Origin: a virus
Lineage: Duplodnaviria; Heunggongvirae; Uroviricota; Caudoviricetes
Virus record (IMG/VR): IMGVR_UViG_2529292726_000018
Span: 1-29,089 of that record
Length of the DNA stretch: 29,089 bases
Direction: 5' to 3' (one strand)
Positions 11,378 to 18,494 of the stretch are shown piece by piece (position 1 is the stretch's first letter; each line of letters opens with the position of its first letter). The notes under the pieces were generated by a model. It was not told where the DNA came from. It did no database searches and saw only the letters and a program-made list of their open reading frames with translations. Position numbers and translations under genes: made by a program.

Positions 11378-12764
11378 TGATTTCCATCAGCATTACACTC
11401 TGATTTTTTAATTCATCGATCACTTCCTCTGGACGGGAATCCTGATCGATAAATTTCAACGCCTGCAACACCCGAACCGCATCAATCTGACGTATATCAC
11501 CGCCCTGACGCAATGACTGAACAGCCAGCGCGGAGGATGAGTCAAACACCTGGGCAGATACATCCAGTTCAGTGCGCACATCCACATTGCCACCGCAACT
11601 CTCTCCGCTCCATTCCGCCATTATCTGGAGAATATTATCGAGGGCATCTTCGAGGGAGTTCGCCATTGTATAAAGCGGCGAGTGTTCCTGCATCCGCTCT
11701 TCATTAGTCTGATCAACAGATTTGGTGGATGTATTTTCAGCCCGCAGAAGTTTAGCGCCGGCATGACGCATCTGATTTTCCAGCTTCTCAAGTGATGTTT
11801 CGCCAGATTCTATCGCTGCGCCACTATGTTCAACATATTCGAGGCCATTTTTTGTTCTGTCCTCAAAAATCGTAGCGGTGGATGCACCAACCGTCAGTTC
11901 TTCATTCCTGTCCAGCCCGTAGGCCACCAGCAATGGAACGCGGGCAACATGAAGAATATTGTCCTGCTCGCTCTGGCTTTGCCAGTGCTTGATATTCAGC
12001 AAGCCAAGATTAAGCAATGGCGGTGTACCACGCATAAACCCTGTTTTCTTCGTATACAGTGTTACCAGAGGAATATCATCACGGCTGGTATTCCATGACT
12101 CATGAAGCATCCAGACAGATTCGCCATTAGTACCTTCGCTGCGTCGATAAATTTCTACTCGACGGGGCATAATATGGCGGATCTGCTCCACCTTCTTCTG
12201 CCCGAAATCATCACCATCAATAATGATGACCTCTTTTATACGCAAATCAGTGAGAACAACTTTCCCTTTTTCAACTTTCGATTTCCATCCAATAACCTGG
12301 CGTGGATTCAGCATCGTAACGTACGGGCGACCACCGGCCGCGTTTTCATCGGCTTTTGTCCGAATCTCGTTCATATCCGTTCGTGGATAGTCCACCAGCG
12401 CATGTGCCACACCATACTGAAATGCGAGACTGAAAAATTGCTGCGCCCACACATCCAGTCGGCTCCCCTCCATGTCGATATTTTCTGCATATTCCCTGAT
12501 TTTTTCCGGCGTTTCCTCACTCAATACTGTCGGCTCTGCAAATATGCGCCCAATATTTTGTTTGATGCTTTCTTCATACACAGGAAGTAGCGTAGCCACA
12601 GACAGGCGTTTTTTATAAGCGTCTTCATCTTCATTAGGCCATTTGGGGAGATAATTTTCCCCCTGCCTGCGCATTTCAAGCGTACCGCCCATCAATGCGT
12701 CGTTAATATCCCACGCCTCCAGCATATCGTTATAGTCGAGGTTGGGGGTTGATATATCAGCCAT
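11358..12764 (-). CDS. Portal protein
   Basis: 468 aa, immediately downstream of the large terminase gene (2 nt gap) and overlapping the head morphogenesis gene. Confidence 0.75.
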   Translation of the reverse strand: MADISTPNLDYNDMLEAWDINDALMGGTLEMRRQGENYLPKWPNEDEDAYKKRLSVATLLPVYEESIKQNIGRIFAEPTVLSEETPEKIREYAENIDMEGSRLDVWAQQFFSLAFQYGVAHALVDYPRTDMNEIRTKADENAAGGRPYVTMLNPRQVIGWKSKVEKGKVVLTDLRIKEVIIIDGDDFGQKKVEQIRHIMPRRVEIYRRSEGTNGESVWMLHESWNTSRDDIPLVTLYTKKTGFMRGTPPLLNLGLLNIKHWQSQSEQDNILHVARVPLLVAYGLDRNEELTVGASTATIFEDRTKNGLEYVEHSGAAIESGETSLEKLENQMRHAGAKLLRAENTSTKSVDQTNEERMQEHSPLYTMANSLEDALDNILQIMAEWSGESCGGNVDVRTELDVSAQVFDSSSALAVQSLRQGGDIRQIDAVRVLQALKFIDQDSRPEEVIDELKNQSVMLMEINDANRE

Positions 12765-12766
12765 AA

Positions 12767-14077
12767 TTAAATCCGAAGTGATGTGACTCTTCCGGTCGGT
12801 TTGACAATAGGGAATTGCTTAACGATGAAATAACCTCCGGCATCATTCGGGTGATCATTGCCAGATTTTTTATCAGGCTCCCCCTTATCATCCCAGACCT
12901 GTTGCTCCAGAGATTCGGCATATACCGGACAACGCTTCACATTAACTTTATAGCGACGCTCACCATTGGCATTGCAGAACATTGCATTCATTGAGTTAAC
13001 GCGATCTTTTACTGGCGGGTTCGAGCTGTTCACCACAACGTTAAAACCTGCCTGCTTAAGCTGGGCTATATCCGTCGTACTTGCGTTACTTGATTTTCTG
13101 GAATCTCCGGAAGCATCTGGATAAATATAAATCTCCCTCACTTTCCGGTAATCATGCCCGTCATACGGCCAGAAGCGTTCTTTAATGAGGCGGATCATAT
13201 CCGGCGTATCGTAGGCATTGATGATTTCAGTTACCGCACATGGAAGCCCCAAACGCAGCACATGGACGATTCCCGCCATCTTTCCAACGTTAAAATCCAT
13301 CCCAATATAAATCGGCTCCCCTGGCTGCTCCACTTCTTCGCAATTATTCAGTTTCCGGTCAAACTGATGGTAAACAGTACCACTTGTCAGGTTAGTAAAC
13401 CGTCCTAGAAGATAGGCTTTAATCAACCCTGGAGGGTATGATTCAAGAAGTGAAGGAATGTAATCTGCTGGCAGGTTCTTTTCATTATCGAAAGTAGATG
13501 CCTGCACCAGACCATACAGTGAGGCCAGCTCTGTTTTTTCACGCACGGCTTTAACAAACTGCTCGTAGACAAATTTGAATCCTTCCGGCGTGGTTGTAAC
13601 GTCAATACCGTTGCGAAGTCCATCAATCTTATAACGCATACGCGCAATTATCTTGCGCCACGCCGTTCTGGCTTTTTCCTTCGGCAAAATATCCAGTTCA
13701 TCCACCAGCGCATTACCAATTTTGAAACCGACGATCGTTTGTGGCTTCTCCATCGATCTGCAGATAGTGGTTCCCCGATACTGGCGTCCGTAATAAAAGT
13801 GAACCTCTTTATTTCCCTCATTAATTTTTACGTTCAATCCCCAGTCAGCAGCAACTTCTTCCACTGTAGGGTAAAAAATATCGCGAATTTGGGGATACGT
13901 TGGCGCAAAATATCCCTGATTTATACCTGGATGCTCCCAAATCCCCTTGCATATGCCGCCACACCCAACCCATGTTTTGCCCGAGCCAAAACCAGCAATA
14001 TAGGCTTTAAATTTATGGGGCATTGAAAGAAATCGCGCCTGAGGCACATTAAGCGTCGGAGAGATCATCTTCATCAC
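12767..14077 (-). CDS. Terminase large subunit
   Basis: 436 aa with an N-terminal Walker A motif (AGFGSGKT) and acidic segments consistent with an ATPase plus nuclease. Overlaps the small terminase gene by 29 nt. Confidence 0.85.
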   Translation of the reverse strand: MMKMISPTLNVPQARFLSMPHKFKAYIAGFGSGKTWVGCGGICKGIWEHPGINQGYFAPTYPQIRDIFYPTVEEVAADWGLNVKINEGNKEVHFYYGRQYRGTTICRSMEKPQTIVGFKIGNALVDELDILPKEKARTAWRKIIARMRYKIDGLRNGIDVTTTPEGFKFVYEQFVKAVREKTELASLYGLVQASTFDNEKNLPADYIPSLLESYPPGLIKAYLLGRFTNLTSGTVYHQFDRKLNNCEEVEQPGEPIYIGMDFNVGKMAGIVHVLRLGLPCAVTEIINAYDTPDMIRLIKERFWPYDGHDYRKVREIYIYPDASGDSRKSSNASTTDIAQLKQAGFNVVVNSSNPPVKDRVNSMNAMFCNANGERRYKVNVKRCPVYAESLEQQVWDDKGEPDKKSGNDHPNDAGGYFIVKQFPIVKPTGRVTSLRI

Positions 14078-15143
14078 TCCTTAATCTGGCATCAACCACA
14101 TTAATATTGATCGCCACAGGCTGGGGATGTTCATTATCCTCCACCGTTTCGATCTCTTTGCGCAGCTTCTGGTTTTCTATTCTGCGCCGTTCAATTTCCA
14201 GTTCCTGTAGCCGTTTATCTGCACATAATGCCCCGCCAGCAGAAAGCAAACGCAACAATTCACGCCGGGCGGCAGCCTTATCCTCCAGCAGGATCTCAAC
14301 ACCGTATTTTCCGAGCTTTGACCCTGCATATAATTGCCGCGCATCCCCATCAAGCAGTGTGGTATCAGCCATATAAAGCTGTCCCGTTCCCTCACCGCAG
14401 CACTTCGGGCAATCCGGATTGGGTATGGCGTTATCAACAAAGCCGAGGCCTCCATATTCCGGCTCGGGTTTACCATCTCTGGAGGCCTGTGCCGCAGCCT
14501 TATCGAATTCTGCAATATCACGCCACTGGTAGAGATGATTCTCGCCCCAGCAATAACGGCAGTTAACACGGCGAAATTGTGCCAACTGATTGGGGTCGGC
14601 CTGGACAATGGCCATCAACTGGCTCACCAGTAAATCCAGGTCTGCGGTATAGCGTTTCTGGTACTGATTGCGGAAGTAGCTGATAGCACGATAAACCCTG
14701 GCATTTCTAAGCATACGGCTGGCGTTGCTGTTAGCTGTCGCACCTTGCCCCTCATAACCAGCCAGTCGGTATGCCTCTGTCGGCTTTTTCCCCTGAGCAA
14801 CCAACATGGCGAATTTTGCCTGCTGGTCAGAAATACCGAATTCATCGGGGCAGAACGAAATTTCTTCCGTGTCCCCCTCAATCAGGAGTGCATCGGATAC
14901 AGCCTTTTTTTTCTGAGATTTTCCGTTCTGCCTTTGCGCAGTCTGCGCAGTTTTTTTTCGCGCACTTTTTTGCGCAGTTTTGCGCATTTCTTTCTGCGCA
15001 TTTTTCGGAGTTTTTTTGATGTAACGACGGGCTGTTGCGTAGTTCAGTCCCCTTGCTTCACACCATGCCACCGGAGATATACCGGAGCGGGTGTATTCAG
15101 CAATATACTCCTGCTGCAACGCCCCCCAGTCCGGTCTGCTCAT
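14049..15143 (-). CDS. Terminase small subunit (Terminase_2-like core with N- and C-terminal extensions)
   Basis: 364 aa. Core AKFAMLVAQGKKPTEAYRLAGYEGQGATANSNASRMLRNARV resembles the small-terminase signature. Also has an N-terminal HTH-like segment, a Lys-rich linker and a Cys cluster (CRYCW...CPKCCGEG). Confidence 0.65.
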   Translation of the reverse strand: MSRPDWGALQQEYIAEYTRSGISPVAWCEARGLNYATARRYIKKTPKNAQKEMRKTAQKSARKKTAQTAQRQNGKSQKKKAVSDALLIEGDTEEISFCPDEFGISDQQAKFAMLVAQGKKPTEAYRLAGYEGQGATANSNASRMLRNARVYRAISYFRNQYQKRYTADLDLLVSQLMAIVQADPNQLAQFRRVNCRYCWGENHLYQWRDIAEFDKAAAQASRDGKPEPEYGGLGFVDNAIPNPDCPKCCGEGTGQLYMADTTLLDGDARQLYAGSKLGKYGVEILLEDKAAARRELLRLLSAGGALCADKRLQELEIERRRIENQKLRKEIETVEDNEHPQPVAININVVDARLRSDEDDLSDA

Positions 15144-15146
15144 CAG

Positions 15147-15398
15147 TTAGTCCTGATTTTTATCCACCCTGAGTAGTTCGCGCAGAGCAAAGGCATCCCC
15201 TTTTCTGGCAAGCTTAAACAATGCCGCTCGTAACTCGGCTTCACCTTTCGCTCTGCCCTTACGGATGGCCGCATAAAAATCTGTCATTGCTTCCCGATTT
15301 TCTTTCAGTCGGTTCAGATCAACATCCAGAACGTCAGCGATTTGTTGTGCAGTCATCCGGCACGCTGCCAGAGACTCGACTTTCGAATACGGAATCAT
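15147..15398 (-). CDS. Small hypothetical protein with a possible HTH (83 aa or less)
   Basis: MTAQQIADVLDVD is HTH-like. Overlaps the 3' end of the upstream gene; lies between the GT-A-like gene and the small terminase gene. Start codon uncertain (15398 or 15356). Confidence 0.4.
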   Translation of the reverse strand: MIPYSKVESLAACRMTAQQIADVLDVDLNRLKENREAMTDFYAAIRKGRAKGEAELRAALFKLARKGDAFALRELLRVDKNQD

Positions 15399-16266
15399 TT
15401 GTCACCCCCATTGATATGCAGGGTGTCTTCTTCCTGTATTTTTCGTGAAGGATTTTTACTGCAGCGTTGTTCCAGGTGACCTGATGGTGAATGCGTTTAT
15501 GGCTGGCACCCATCAGTGAGATTTTTACGCACGACGGCGCATACATGACGGAGTAAAAACTTTTAACGTAGGTTCCGGAATCCAGATACAGCTCGGTCAT
15601 TCCGCCGCTGTTTTTCTGCGTCTGTTTCTGCCCTAACTGGACAGCACCGATCGTCATAAACAATTCACCACAGCGACCGAGATTCGTGTACGTATTCACA
15701 TCCTCGTTAATGCGCCCCATGAATGAGAACGGTCGATCAACCGAACAGATAAAGCTGTTCATTGCCTTGCGTTTCACCCACGAAGCATGGCCGCCATTGT
15801 CACCAAGAAAATCCCCGCCCTGCGACATAGCGATGGAAAGCGCGGGTATTGATTCGTAATACGCCAGCATTTCAGAAAGGATCGCATCCAGTTTCCTTAT
15901 CGGGAAATAGGCCTGGTCATAGTTGCGATCCACCCGAAACTGGAACTCGTGATAATCATCATCGAGCTGAATGAAGTATTTACACCCGACCAGTTTTGCC
16001 AGGTCGAAACAGGCATTACGGGCGTAAAAAATTGAGCGGCGGTCACCAAAATTATCGGCTTCGTCAAAACGACTGGCAATATCGGCTTTGGAAAATACCA
16101 GCACCTGTTCACCAAATTCAGCCATGTACTGATGCCGTGTCTTATCTTCATCATCAACAACGATAAAAATTTTCCCGGTATAGCCAGCACGACGCAACGT
16201 CCGGTAAGTCAGAACTTTGTCCGGTCGCCCGTGAGTCAGAATAAAGGCGCAAAAATCATCACGCAT
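15334..16266 (-). CDS. Hypothetical protein with GT-A-like (DxD-type) nucleotide-sugar transferase hallmarks
   Basis: 310 aa. ATG at 16266 preceded by a G-rich SD and coupled to the ParB-like stop (ATGCGTGA overlap). N-terminal AFILTHGRPDKVLTYRTLRRAGYTGKIFIVVDDED and later KYFIQLDDDYHEF look like a GT-A Rossmann start and a DxD motif. Fold assignment is by eye only. Confidence 0.55.
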   Translation of the reverse strand: MRDDFCAFILTHGRPDKVLTYRTLRRAGYTGKIFIVVDDEDKTRHQYMAEFGEQVLVFSKADIASRFDEADNFGDRRSIFYARNACFDLAKLVGCKYFIQLDDDYHEFQFRVDRNYDQAYFPIRKLDAILSEMLAYYESIPALSIAMSQGGDFLGDNGGHASWVKRKAMNSFICSVDRPFSFMGRINEDVNTYTNLGRCGELFMTIGAVQLGQKQTQKNSGGMTELYLDSGTYVKSFYSVMYAPSCVKISLMGASHKRIHHQVTWNNAAVKILHEKYRKKTPCISMGVTNDSVFESRVSGSVPDDCTTNR

Positions 16267-17047
16267 ATTCCCCCTCCCCGCTATGCATGATCGCCACCAT
16301 GCGCTGCGTCATTCGGACAAATCCATTTTCAATAGCCTGCTGATAATCAATGATCACCAGCGCCGACTCCTCGAAAAGGCACTGAATTTCAGCGGGGGCA
16401 TGAGCGTAATAGTCCGCAATTCTGCTGAAATTAAACACCGTGTGACGTTCTGCCGCACACAGGAGGAATTTCTCAATATCAGGATCAAGGGACGCCGAAC
16501 GTATCCGGCTGATCAGCTCCTGAGTTTTCGTATCGTCGTACAGTTCACTGATATCCGGTTTACCGCCCGACGGCTCATAAACAGGCGTATCAATTTTCGT
16601 CGTATACGGCTCCTCCTTATTTCCTGTACCGGGCAAAACATCCGTCAACAGTTCATCAATTTCTGTCGGGCCGAAGCCTGTCAGGGAGACATCAAAATCA
16701 GCATTGATTAGGTCCGACAGCTCCATCCGCAATAGATCTTCATCCCAGCCAGCATTCATCGGTAGGCGATTATCTGCCAGGCGGTACGCCTTTTTCTGCT
16801 CATCCGTCAGGCCAGACAGAACAATGACCGGAACAGAATCCATTTTGAGCATTTCAGCCGCCATAACACGACCGTGACCCGCAATAATTTCGCCCTTTTC
16901 GTCAATCAGCACCGGATTAGTCCAGCCGAATTGCTTAATACTTTCTACCAGTTGTGCCACCTGCTCAGTACTGTGCGTCCTGGCGTTGTGCGCATACGGT
17001 GACAATTCTTGTAATGGGCGATAGACTATCTTTAATTTCTCGCTCAT
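16259..17047 (-). CDS. ParB-like N-terminal domain protein (ParB/Srx superfamily; IbrB-like)
   Basis: 262 aa. ARTHSTEQVAQLVESIKQFGWTNPVLIDEKGEIIAGHGRVMAAEMLKMDSVPVIVL matches the ParB N-domain pattern (GxGR, then hydrophobic VPV). SD (GAGG) before ATG 17047. Confidence 0.8.
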   Translation of the reverse strand: MSEKLKIVYRPLQELSPYAHNARTHSTEQVAQLVESIKQFGWTNPVLIDEKGEIIAGHGRVMAAEMLKMDSVPVIVLSGLTDEQKKAYRLADNRLPMNAGWDEDLLRMELSDLINADFDVSLTGFGPTEIDELLTDVLPGTGNKEEPYTTKIDTPVYEPSGGKPDISELYDDTKTQELISRIRSASLDPDIEKFLLCAAERHTVFNFSRIADYYAHAPAEIQCLFEESALVIIDYQQAIENGFVRMTQRMVAIMHSGEGEYA

Positions 17048-17066
17048 ACAGCCTCGCTTTATGAAT

Positions 17067-17159
17067 AAAAAAGCCCGCTATCGGCCAGTGCGCTGGGTGC
17101 GCGGCGGGTGCTGATAACGAGCTTTGACATTATCGCAGCCCCTCACACTGAAGGGCTGC
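17067..17159 (-). terminator. Pair of hairpins (terminator-like) between the acidic small gene and the ParB-like gene
   Basis: Perfect 7 bp stem GCAGCCC/GGGCTGC at 17135-17159 just after the upstream stop. A second GC stem (CCCGC/GCGGG with an inner CCAG/CTGG) is followed on the minus strand by UUUUUUAUU at 17067-17072. Confidence 0.35.
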
Positions 17160-17170
17160 TGTAATGCCTG

Positions 17171-17470
17171 TTACTCAGTAACAACTGCGCCTTCCGGTAA
17201 TTTCATACCGGCAAATACCGGACAACCAGGATGACAATCATCTTCTGTTGCTTCCAGCATTGACTCACCAAACCACTCCGTCGTGGCGCGACCATCAGCT
17301 GCTTTGTAGTGGATCAAGTACTGGTTTTCGCCATCCGCATACTGCGCGCGGGCTTTAACCTCCCCCCATTCATCACTGATGCGCATCTCCACCAGTTGAG
17401 ACAACTCAAACTTAAACGGAGCAGCATCAGCACCAATTACAATCGGTTTGTTTTTTGTTTTTTCCATCAT
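17171..17470 (-). CDS. Small acidic hypothetical protein (about 99 aa)
   Basis: ATG ATG at 17470/17467 with SD AGGAG. MMEKTKNKPIVIGADAAPFKFELSQLVEMRISDEWGE...; net acidic. Flanked by hairpins on both sides, which suggests an autonomous accessory gene. Confidence 0.55.
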   Translation of the reverse strand: MMEKTKNKPIVIGADAAPFKFELSQLVEMRISDEWGEVKARAQYADGENQYLIHYKAADGRATTEWFGESMLEATEDDCHPGCPVFAGMKLPEGAVVTE

Positions 17471-17605
17471 CGTCTCCTGATATCGAAGCCCGCCGCCGCA
17501 CCGGGCGCTGATCAACATTTGAGTATTCGCAGCGAAAGAAAGAATTTATTTTATTGAGTAGCCACAAACACAGAATTTCGTGCTTTCCAGACGATGGCGC
17601 ATCCT

Positions 17606-17824
17606 TCATTTTTCAGCAAAATATTCTGCTCTTACAGGCGATAAGTTCTGCAGACACTGCCGAACACCGTCAACAATTTCGCAGACCTGAGAAGCCGTAT
17701 CGAAAAGCTGGCGCGCCTTATCCAGGCTAACGCATCCCACCAGGAAAAAAGGCACCAGTATCGCTACCAGTGCCCATTTCGCCGCCGTTCGCGGCATTCT
17801 GTGTGTCCAGTGTTTTCTGCTCAT
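17606..17824 (-). CDS. Small lipoprotein, possible spanin component
   Basis: 72 aa from ATG 17824 (SD AGGTG). Signal peptide with lipobox LVGC (…WALVAILVPFFLVGC). Overlaps the endolysin 3' end, as spanin genes often do. Confidence 0.45.
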   Translation of the reverse strand: MSRKHWTHRMPRTAAKWALVAILVPFFLVGCVSLDKARQLFDTASQVCEIVDGVRQCLQNLSPVRAEYFAEK

Positions 17825-17838
17825 AACACACCTGGTTA

Positions 17839-18222
17839 TCAGCGTTTCAACTGAAAGTGAGGCCCGTCTTTCAGTGTTTTCCAGTCCCCGCCCCATTCGA
17901 TGGCAGTTCCCAGCTCTGCGGCAGCCTTCTTAAATGCCTGCGCGATTTTCTCGTACAGAGGCCAGTCCCATGACACCTGGCTGCCAACCCAGGCAACAAC
18001 ATCCACCGCATCACCGGTCAGGTGGCGGCTGTTCATGGTCTGGCTTTTCCCTTCCGCGACCAGCTGTTTCTGGCGTTCTTTCGTGCGCAGCCCTTCCGTA
18101 ATACCGAAATCAACCTCCGTCAGCTCCAGCGCACGGCGAACGACAGCAACCAGCTGTGGTTTAACGCCCTCCAGATTTTTTTCACTGCGACGGCTGAATC
18201 TGAATTTACCCGACATATTCAC
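17839..18222 (-). CDS. Endolysin, peptidase M15 family (L-alanyl-D-glutamate peptidase, T5-endolysin-like)
   Basis: 127 aa. SEKNLEGVKPQL, RRALEL, SRHLTGDAVD and GGDW parallel the T5 endolysin / VanY-type zinc-peptidase motifs as recalled. Confidence 0.85.
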   Translation of the reverse strand: MNMSGKFRFSRRSEKNLEGVKPQLVAVVRRALELTEVDFGITEGLRTKERQKQLVAEGKSQTMNSRHLTGDAVDVVAWVGSQVSWDWPLYEKIAQAFKKAAAELGTAIEWGGDWKTLKDGPHFQLKR

Positions 18223-18494
18223 CTCAACAATGGAAAGATTTTTGTGACGTTCCCGCGTGCGCGTATCACCAGCACGCAGAACAGCAGGTTAAAAAACACT
18301 TCCAGCCAGCCCGTTGCTAACGGGCGACCACACAGATAGCTGAGGGGCGCAAAGGCATACAGCAGCATCAGCAGCCACGCCAGCCATGACATCAGCGGTT
18401 TATGTCTGGAATCACGGCGACGATAAAAAAAGAGCGTCAGCACGATAACCGTGCATAACGCTACATTCAGCAATCCGGGAAGGTTACTTAACAT
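18219..18494 (-). CDS. Small membrane protein (holin or antiholin-like), 91 aa
   Basis: ATG at 18494 with SD GGAGG. Three predicted transmembrane segments; directly upstream of the endolysin and overlapping its start. Confidence 0.5.
   Translation of the reverse strand: MLSNLPGLLNVALCTVIVLTLFFYRRRDSRHKPLMSWLAWLLMLLYAFAPLSYLCGRPLATGWLEVFFNLLFCVLVIRARGNVTKIFPLLR

Follow-up and report, generated by a model that had tools for sequence, protein, structure and literature searches.

A modular Terminase_2 small terminase with an intragenic hexamer array as putative packaging site in a Rac-like Escherichia coli prophage

The window described here is a lambdoid, Rac-like Escherichia coli prophage; "window" denotes the whole analyzed stretch of 29,089 nucleotides (nt), positions 1 to 29,089 of the IMG/VR virus record IMGVR_UViG_2529292726_000018. 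On its (-) strand, at 14049..15143, lies terS, whose product of 364 amino acids (aa) is, judged by profile matches, a small terminase (TerS) of the SF6/SPP1 type (Terminase_2). The protein consists of four modules: an accessory helix-turn-helix (HTH), the Terminase_2 HTH, a ring core with a Cys insertion, and a coiled coil with a tail. With moderate confidence, we regard it as a modular TerS in which the accessory HTH head and an array of hexamers within the gene itself set the packaging (pac) specificity, the array being the putative pac. The wider picture has about an even chance of being right as a whole, namely that a portable HTH-plus-site cassette of ~350 bp sets the packaging specificity of many temperate Proteobacteria phages and that four conserved cysteines (Cys4) form the first zinc site of a phage TerS.

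The N-terminal head and the hexamer array

The accessory HTH, named type A, comprises residues 1-45 (15009..15143, (-)) and is delineated by the AlphaFold2 (AF2) model and by its relatives. Its helices are predicted at residues 6-20, 24-30, and 35-38 with a predicted local distance difference test (pLDDT) score of 89-95. The type-A consensus is MxxPDWGxLQ…GISPxxWCExxGLNYxTARRYIKK, wherein YATARRYIKK is proposed to be the recognition helix. A profile search of the PDB with this HTH returned spurious lectin repeats only. Within the Cys4 family, the type-A head is confined to a sub-branch of Yersinia, Klebsiella, and E. coli phages and prophages, and most members have no N-terminal extension. The same head is found at the start of proteins in TerS position whose cores are unrelated, namely those of RothC, PhiR12_3, and Pmp11, in which Pfam finds no Terminase_2 domain. 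At least 575 type-A relatives are contained in IMG/VR. In other members, the N-terminal HTH is of another kind, type B, and is likewise followed by a basic tether; according to Pfam, the N-terminal heads of the family are heterogeneous.

The head is followed by a Lys/Gln/Ala-rich linker (residues 46-100; 14844..15008, (-)), assigned by its composition and by a low-confidence helix that passes into disorder. It contains 10 Lys and 3 Arg in 55 residues, with a pLDDT of 46-78 that falls below 50 for residues 73-88, and its coding strand is A-rich (AT skew -0.35). Within the linker codons lies the hexamer array (14935..15000, no strand assigned; gene nt 144-209), a block of 66 bp with TGCGCA at 14935, 14944, 14971, 14981, and 14995 and TGCGCG at 14959. 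The hexamers are spaced by 9-15 bp and separated by A-tracts, so that 14935-15000 reads TGCGCA-gaaagaaa-TGCGCA-aaac-TGCGCA-aaaaag-TGCGCG-aaaaaaaac-TGCGCA-gac-TGCGCA. The window of 29 kb holds 17 copies of TGCGCA, five of which lie inside the array, and none of 20000 random placements gave five or more within 100 bp. A shuffle test for exact matches to CTGCGCAAA over the whole window (13 matches versus 11.3 expected) is uninformative, since the signal is the clustering and not the total count.

An equivalent array follows directly after the HTH codons in all seven phage genes (7/7) with a type-A head. For a broader sample, 53 distinct loci, which are not phylogenetically independent, were retrieved from IMG/VR with the type-A head alone. 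An unbiased search for 6-mers puts the linker window above every control window in 53/53 of these loci, with 5.25 copies, whereas the controls average 2.28 and their maximum averages 3.17; TGCGCA leads the linker 6-mers in 47 loci and TGCGAA in five. The hexamer is read in up to three reading frames, as T-A-Q, L/M/V-R, or C-A. Of 222 AQ dipeptides in the linker, 206 (93%) are spelled T-GCG-CA, compared with 21 of 154 (14%) in the remainder of these genes (Fisher P 2e-59, with loci that are not independent). Because the hexamer spans frames and because of this codon bias, the constraint on the array is, as far as the sequences tell, one on DNA and not on the peptide. The richness in Lys would largely be the translation of the AAA-rich A-tract spacers. 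An earlier note on this DNA had listed a Lys-rich linker as a protein feature; the stretch is there, but it is better read as spacers between TGCGCA hexamers at the DNA level, and the composition of the linker would be dictated by these spacers and hexamers rather than by protein function.

The array is also kept where the TerS cores are unrelated, as in RothC, PhiR12_3, Pmp11, and the loci L082-L094, and at least four core types carry the head together with the array. Among protein elements, only the N-terminal HTH recurs in every array-bearing gene, and the Terminase_2 HTH is missing from the RothC-type proteins. No comparable array was found at the 5' end of genes of family members without this HTH (Bcep22, F116, Skulduggery, PEp14, BcepB1A, Parlo, and P0136), where GC-rich genomes make the 6-mer statistic noisy. 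As the sole common element, the head is the candidate reader that would bind the hexamers. An 83-aa protein encoded upstream of terS is not needed for the array, since the phage loci of Yersinia and Klebsiella lack it.

Head and array moreover covary. In 51 loci with …ARRYIK… helices, the mean count is 5.2 for TGCGCA versus 0.04 for TGCGAA, and in eight loci with …AKRYIK… helices it is 5.6 for TGCGAA/TTCGCA versus 0.13 for TGCGCA, at a background of ~0.1 motif per window of this count. The AKRYIK loci comprise three core types from Yersinia, Klebsiella-type, and Pasteurella phages. Hence, the change of Arg39 to Lys in the recognition helix goes with the change of TGCGCA to TGCGAA. Type-B heads were retrieved with a narrower HTH alignment, the broad one being too diverse, which yielded at least 519 loci in IMG/VR. 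Here, an array is found in 68 of 71 loci, and the motif again differs by helix, with GCGAAC accompanying …SDTAIRK… and GCGTAC accompanying …TEGAIRK…. Single relatives display 3+3 inverted sets, for example GGGGCA×3 then TGCCCC×3, with A-tract spacers. In four type-B loci (L106, L108, L109, and L112), the top linker 6-mer is AATTGA with 4-5 copies and not GCGAAC; their HTH is nearly identical to that of GCGAAC-bearing neighbors, and they may carry two motif sets. Because the recognition helix covaries with the array encoded directly after it, the N-terminal HTH very probably adds DNA recognition, as had been suggested for the extra domains of this protein.

How head and array might act can be sketched from related systems. 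The pac of P1 spans 161 bp in pacA and contains seven TGATCA/G hexamers (PMC10028697). The Terminase_2 HTH of SF6 binds weakly and without regard to sequence, relying on bent DNA (PMC4737164), and a separate specificity head on a tether is therefore sensible. In the window, the Terminase_2 HTH would provide such weak, sequence-independent wrapping, as in SF6 G1P. The N-terminal HTH on its flexible basic tether would read about six TGCGCA hexamers, spaced by approximately one helical turn with A-tracts in between and located within the DNA coding for the tether. The large terminase (TerL) would then cut near the array, whereupon headful packaging would begin. The HTH and its own site would thus form one cassette of ~350 bp that sets pac specificity, with the cognate hexamers overprinted on the codons of the disordered tether. 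Since protein and site travel together, this cassette could be grafted onto unrelated small-terminase cores with its function kept. A preprint on gut capsid DNA holds no data on this prophage.

Several observations speak against the array being the pac. A literature search for TGCGCA together with terminase found no link to packaging. The HTH codons adjoin the array, so that both are co-inherited and the covariation corresponds to few independent evolutionary events. In the E. coli lineage, the hexamer columns are barely more conserved than the spacers (0.039 versus 0.053; on the same measure, the HTH codons score 0.015 and the distal linker 0.111), and hexamers are sometimes degraded to TGTGCA or TGCACA, or, in one of the six of the window, to TGCGCG. 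The similar conservation of hexamers and spacers would also fit an array without cis function, as a by-product of slippage or duplication of an AQK/TAQ peptide repeat, with the HTH binding something else; the degenerate 12/24/36-nt periodicity given by Tandem Repeats Finder and the low complexity of the linker peptide point the same way. Such an origin is nevertheless very improbable. One hexamer is used in three frames and yields different peptides, AQ is written T-GCG-CA far more often inside the linker than outside it, and all copies shift jointly to TGCGAA where the recognition helix has Lys for Arg. Inverted 3+3 sets make no sense as peptide repeats, and the array is kept across unrelated cores and hosts.

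An operator role is harder to separate from a packaging role, as a cis site matched to an HTH fits both alike. Herein, the array would be the TerS operator through which the HTH autoregulates the late operon or terS/terL expression, with the pac located elsewhere, and binding by SPP1-like small terminases has indeed been proposed as a means of switching between transcription and packaging (PMC4737164). Terminase-bound repeats inside terS, however, have their precedents in packaging sites, namely in P1, and the array sits in the gene of the very protein that hands DNA to TerL, with the TerL gene directly next to it. We therefore consider an operator with a separate pac unlikely, although the two roles are not mutually exclusive and the array may serve both.

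The small-terminase core, the Cys4 insertion, and the tail

The assignment as TerS follows from a Pfam match above threshold, an end-to-end phrog match, the alignment with SF6 G1P, and the coupling to TerL. Pfam PF03592 (Terminase_2; gathering cut-off 26.1 bits) matches at 36.1 bits (E-value 1.2e-8) with residues 122-316 over profile positions 19-129, and this stretched alignment therefore implies a large internal insert. It also matches 104 of 106 family members. The phrog_51 profile, 'terminase small subunit', is covered from end to end (residues 1-364 versus positions 1-261 of 261; E-value 6.4e-75). A family profile built from 106 diverse relatives aligns with SF6 G1P (3zqp; E-value 3.7e-17) in two blocks, in which positions 6-87 and 183-220 correspond to SF6 residues 21-102 and 117-154: the HTH with the first core helix, and then the strand with the second core helix. 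For the DNA-binding domain of SF6 G1P (3zqp, 4zc3, and 2cmp), the same profile gives E-values of 4e-17 to 1e-9, and for Pam5 TerS (21di) 3.8e-13. When the protein alone was searched against PDB sequences, nothing significant came up, with Pam5 TerS on top (E-value 0.13). The AF2 monomer has a whole-protein pLDDT of 85.8; as a multi-domain model it is floppy, and Foldseek returned only weak TerS matches from the PDB (E-value at least 0.24) and only other predicted small terminases from BFVD.

The canonical Terminase_2 HTH comprises residues 101-147 (14703..14843, (-)), supported by the SF6 profile match and by a Pfam match on the fragment; its helices 106-116, 121-127, and 135-146 are modeled with a pLDDT of 95-98. 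It is followed by the first long core helix (residues 148-182; 14598..14702, (-)), modeled as helix 148-181 and aligned to SF6 G1P through residue 102. The β-hairpin strand and the second long core helix, which continues as a coiled coil, occupy residues 276-336 (14136..14318, (-)) and align to SF6 G1P 117-154; here AF2 places strands at 272-278 and 281-286 and a helix of 48 residues at 289-336. By analogy with SF6, this helical core would build a homo-oligomeric ring, of 8-11 subunits if it follows the SF6/SPP1 type, and the Cys4 module would expand the hairpin region of the ring core.

Between these core elements, the Cys4 insertion module (residues 183-275; 14319..14597, (-)) takes the place of ~14 SF6 G1P residues in the profile alignment. 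Its first knuckle is C195-R-Y-C198 followed by W-G (14550..14561, (-)), and its second is C245-P-K-C248 followed by C-G-E-G, corresponding to CxxCxGxG (14400..14411, (-)), both as read from the translation. An exhaustive family search of 1.84 billion representatives, clustered at 50% identity, yields 1776 clusters at an E-value of at most 1e-3 and 1261 at 1e-10 or below. Most of these clusters are 240-270 aa long and match only query residues ~104-300. Cysteines were counted in 130 unselected representatives covering the region, as alignment A2 was selected on Cys and is invariant by construction. C195 and C198 are each retained in 126 of the 130, C245 in 114, and C248 in 118, and all exceptions are gapped, chimeric, truncated, or frameshifted metagenomic proteins. 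The family motif is CRxCxG…(46 aa)…CPxCxGxG. Further near-invariant residues are R191/R192, Y205, Q206, E212, G231/G232, and D260. The fragment 166-300 is modeled with a pLDDT of 96.9 in the order strand, knuckle 1, helix, long loop, knuckle 2, strand, short helix, and β-hairpin.

The Cys4 insertion thus defines the family, sits in the oligomerization core, and probably binds zinc. The earlier note had recognized the Cys cluster correctly but placed it at the C terminus, as an extra domain with a CxxCC motif. It lies instead at residues 195-248 of 364 within the core, as an insertion of ~80 aa common to the whole family of 1776 clusters, and the fifth cysteine, C249, is variable (N, C, G, or F in relatives). 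Four cysteines could bind zinc in a module that resembles the DnaJ motif; such a module would stiffen the extra β/α sub-domain, and its conserved basic residues RR…CR may also touch DNA. Literature searches on small terminases and zinc found no phage TerS described with a zinc site. The 2022 small-terminase review mentions zinc fingers only for herpesvirus pUL28 and pUL56 (PMC9611059).

The four cysteines might alternatively serve without zinc, in disulfides, in an Fe-S or other metal center, or as a structural relic, so that the insertion would only be a larger oligomerization surface. In favor of this and to the disadvantage of a zinc site, no Pfam zinc model reaches its threshold on the whole protein or the fragment, and Foldseek of the core fragment (166-300) against the PDB finds no neighbor with an E-value below 1, the best being 1.0. 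Searches of fragments with Pfam and NCBIfam likewise matched the N-terminal HTH, the Cys module, and the tail to no model, with a sub-threshold IS66 TnpA-like match only. A role without zinc is rather improbable all the same, as the two CxxC knuckles lie ~46 residues apart, each beside a β-strand, the CxxCxGxG signature is present, and the cysteines are conserved near-absolutely across more than 100 diverse clusters. DnaJ_CXXCXGXG gives weak sub-threshold Pfam matches in 18 of 106 members (best E-value 0.001) and Anti-TRAP in three. Cytoplasmic proteins are, furthermore, unlikely to form disulfides. As to the protein as a whole, the long open reading frame (ORF) might be an artefactual fusion of an HTH protein and a standard TerS through a frameshift or sequencing error, and some relatives do look split or truncated (L012 with 73 + 270 aa, L054 with 88 aa, and L017 with 254 aa). 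This is vanishingly improbable: the 364-aa ORF recurs in hundreds of independently sequenced complete genomes, orthologs in Yersinia, Klebsiella, and E. coli phages are full-length at 34-48% identity, the split in L012 is an N-run scaffold gap, and the truncation in L054 is a change of 1 nt in an A-run. A two-gene version of terS, for which these two relatives were the candidates, is accordingly ruled out.

The C terminus is a disordered acidic tail (residues 337-364, …PVAININVVDARLRSDEDDLSDA; 14052..14135, (-)) with a pLDDT of ~52-56. The tail …PVAININVVDAR… is common to the window, Klebsiella ST974-OXA48phi18.2, and PHB10, and the TerL proteins of these phages are 78-84% identical, whereas their TerS proteins share only 38-43%. 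Conversely, a tail ending in …DGDKDNAIVVHNxLPIPGR is common to Yersinia 210.17, which has a Cys4 core, and RothC, which has an unrelated core; their TerL proteins are of a different type and 87% identical to each other. Hence, the tail type follows the type of TerL and not that of the TerS core, and because of this covariation a putative role in docking TerL is supported. The coiled coil and acidic tail would then recruit the cognate large terminase.

The locus and its neighboring genes

The terS gene encodes 364 aa plus stop from ATG to TAA, as given by the ORF listing and translation and supported by Pfam and phrog_51. It is preceded by an AGGA Shine-Dalgarno sequence, and its ATG lies 3 nt past the stop of the upstream 83-aa ORF. 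The TerL gene (12767..14068, (-); Pfam Terminase_6N and Terminase_6C) starts, according to the Prokaryotic Genome Annotation Pipeline (PGAP), with an ATG at 14068 inside the 3' end of terS, an overlap of 20 nt. A PDB sequence search with TerL gave no match. A DUF4055 portal-type gene follows downstream of TerL.

In E. coli relatives, PGAP labels the protein 'terminase small subunit' (WP_000089446.1). The stretch 12000-17100 is matched in 1609 of 5426 complete E. coli genomes (~30%), and at least 756 of the 1609 cover 80% of it or more, with an identity of 99.7% that reaches up to 99.9%. Protein clusters with 1423 and 414 member sequences likewise have a length of 364 aa. Because this length recurs in E. 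coli populations and in large protein clusters, the ORF is a genuine gene under selection and not a sequencing fusion. The length had been taken as atypical, yet it is normal for its own branch, whose full-length relatives measure 315-381 aa; relatives of such length thus do exist there, while most of the wider Cys-bearing family (median 260 aa) is without the N-terminal extension. What held true of the earlier description is a small terminase, roughly double the textbook size and with two HTHs, whose core, N-terminal HTH-like segment, and Lys-rich stretch are all present according to Pfam, phrog_51, AF2, and composition. The frameshift or sequencing fusion it had considered is not seen, split relatives being scaffold gaps or A-run frameshifts.

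The truncation in L054, an IMG/VR locus, is caused by a one-base change in an A7 run just ahead of the array, which leaves a TerS of 88 aa. With such long A-tracts in the array, the gene is frameshift-prone, and this may explain the truncated or chimeric entries P0122-P0126, L017, and L039. In three further database proteins (P0011, P0039, and P0041), TerS appears joined to a tail fiber (616 aa) or to a TAGT glycosyltransferase (565 aa), probably by gene-calling or assembly artefacts.

Directly upstream of terS lies the gene of the HTH protein of ~83 aa (15147..15398, (-); phrog_309 'terminase small subunit' 145-218, E-value 8e-23). Orthologs with 45-64% identity occupy the same position in the loci L013, L097, and L098, and their alignment reaches residues upstream of the shorter PGAP start at 15357. 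For this reason, the longer version of the ORF, reaching into the end of the TAGT gene, is probably the real one. Its product may be a third packaging component or accessory. Then follow a TET-associated glycosyltransferase (TAGT; 15334-16266, (-); Pfam E-value 5.5e-35, labeled 'GREB1-related' by PGAP) and a ParB_N/Srx protein (16259-17047, (-)) just upstream of the packaging genes. The ORFs scanned in 17-27.4 kb included no TET/JBP partner. At the position of TAGT, relatives carry DNA-modification genes: Mom in L013, Dam-like and GNAT genes in L097, and a ParB_N-methyltransferase in L098. This raises the question whether base modification might act on the pac-like hexamers, which are C-rich, in the way that Dam acts on the P1 pac.

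In relatives, ynaK-, ydaY-, and trkG-type genes adjoin the locus. The close relative NZ_CM128586 (L001) contains trkG and a truncated ynaK, as does the K-12 Rac prophage, where the window at 17100-18300 instead has an intact ParB_N gene of 262 aa and other small ORFs, and the upstream region is mosaic. Farther upstream are a lysis gene encoding a Peptidase_M15_4 endolysin (17839-18222), an AraC-family regulator (HTH_18/HTH_AraC; 19052-19948, (-)) that looks like prophage cargo, and a Q-like antiterminator region (20025-20687; DUF1133 and a weak Phage_antitermQ match). The regulator lies between the antiterminator region and the lysis genes.

Meaning and comparison with known systems

By annotation, the protein is an ordinary 'terminase small subunit'; it fits best among the Terminase_2 TerS proteins, as one with a putative P1-like intragenic pac. 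Three of its features were not found described: the conserved Cys4 insertion, the swappable N-terminal specificity head, and the array overprinted on the tether codons. If the array is the pac, packaging signals would become readable from sequence for hundreds of prophages, namely the type-A and type-B loci counted above, including the prophage in ~30% of complete E. coli genomes. Transduction potential would then be predictable from pseudo-pac sites together with the direction of lateral transduction, and compact packaging signals of ~70 bp would be at hand for phagemid and delivery vectors, as with the P1 pac. The change of Arg39 to Lys alongside that of TGCGCA to TGCGAA amounts to a natural experiment in the co-evolution of protein and DNA, and the array illustrates the overprinting of a cis-acting site on a protein linker that is disordered. 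The Cys4 module is the hallmark of a large class of small terminases that lacks a solved structure, and it is a good structural target because its confident AF2 model lacks a PDB neighbor.

The closest known system is G1P of SF6/SPP1 (PF03592; 3zqp/3zqq and 4zc3). Both share a homologous HTH, the first core helix, and the strand with the second core helix, the position of the gene directly upstream of TerL, and probably a ring that wraps bent pac DNA. Compared with the 164-aa SF6 G1P chain in the PDB entry, the protein of the window is extended to 364 aa by a second, N-terminal HTH on a tether of ~55 aa, by the Cys4 module of 93 aa in place of ~14 G1P residues, and by a long C-terminal coiled coil.

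The pac/PacA system of P1 likewise contains repeated hexamers within the coding sequence of its recognition subunit, a function that would apply to the present array by analogy. However, the hexamers of the window are TGCGCA/TGCGAA without GATC, so that Dam control is not expected, and they form one compact block of 66 bp as opposed to the 4+3 sets of P1 around the cleavage site. No homology with PacA was detected, no search having been aimed at it. A 'T4-like headful' annotation of TerL is found only in the more distant relative PhiR12_3. In lambda, the N-terminal HTH of gpNu1 reads repeated cosB sites beside the terminase genes, aided by DNA bending. Lambda is, however, a cos phage with a winged HTH and 16-bp R sites outside the coding region, whereas the short hexamers described here lie inside the gene.

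The subunits pUL28/pUL56 of herpesviruses are also terminase DNA-recognition subunits with zinc fingers (PMC9611059), and zinc in the present protein is putative. Yet they are ~85 kDa large and all-α, with an unrelated fold and no sequence relationship. The second knuckle, CPKCCGEG, fits the CxxCxGxG of the DnaJ Cys-rich domain and of anti-TRAP, and the first one is CRYCWG. In contrast to the two centers of the DnaJ domain, only one Cys4 center is present, and it is embedded in a terminase core instead of a chaperone; the likeness to DnaJ and anti-TRAP stays at the level of sub-threshold Pfam matches, with no Foldseek match.

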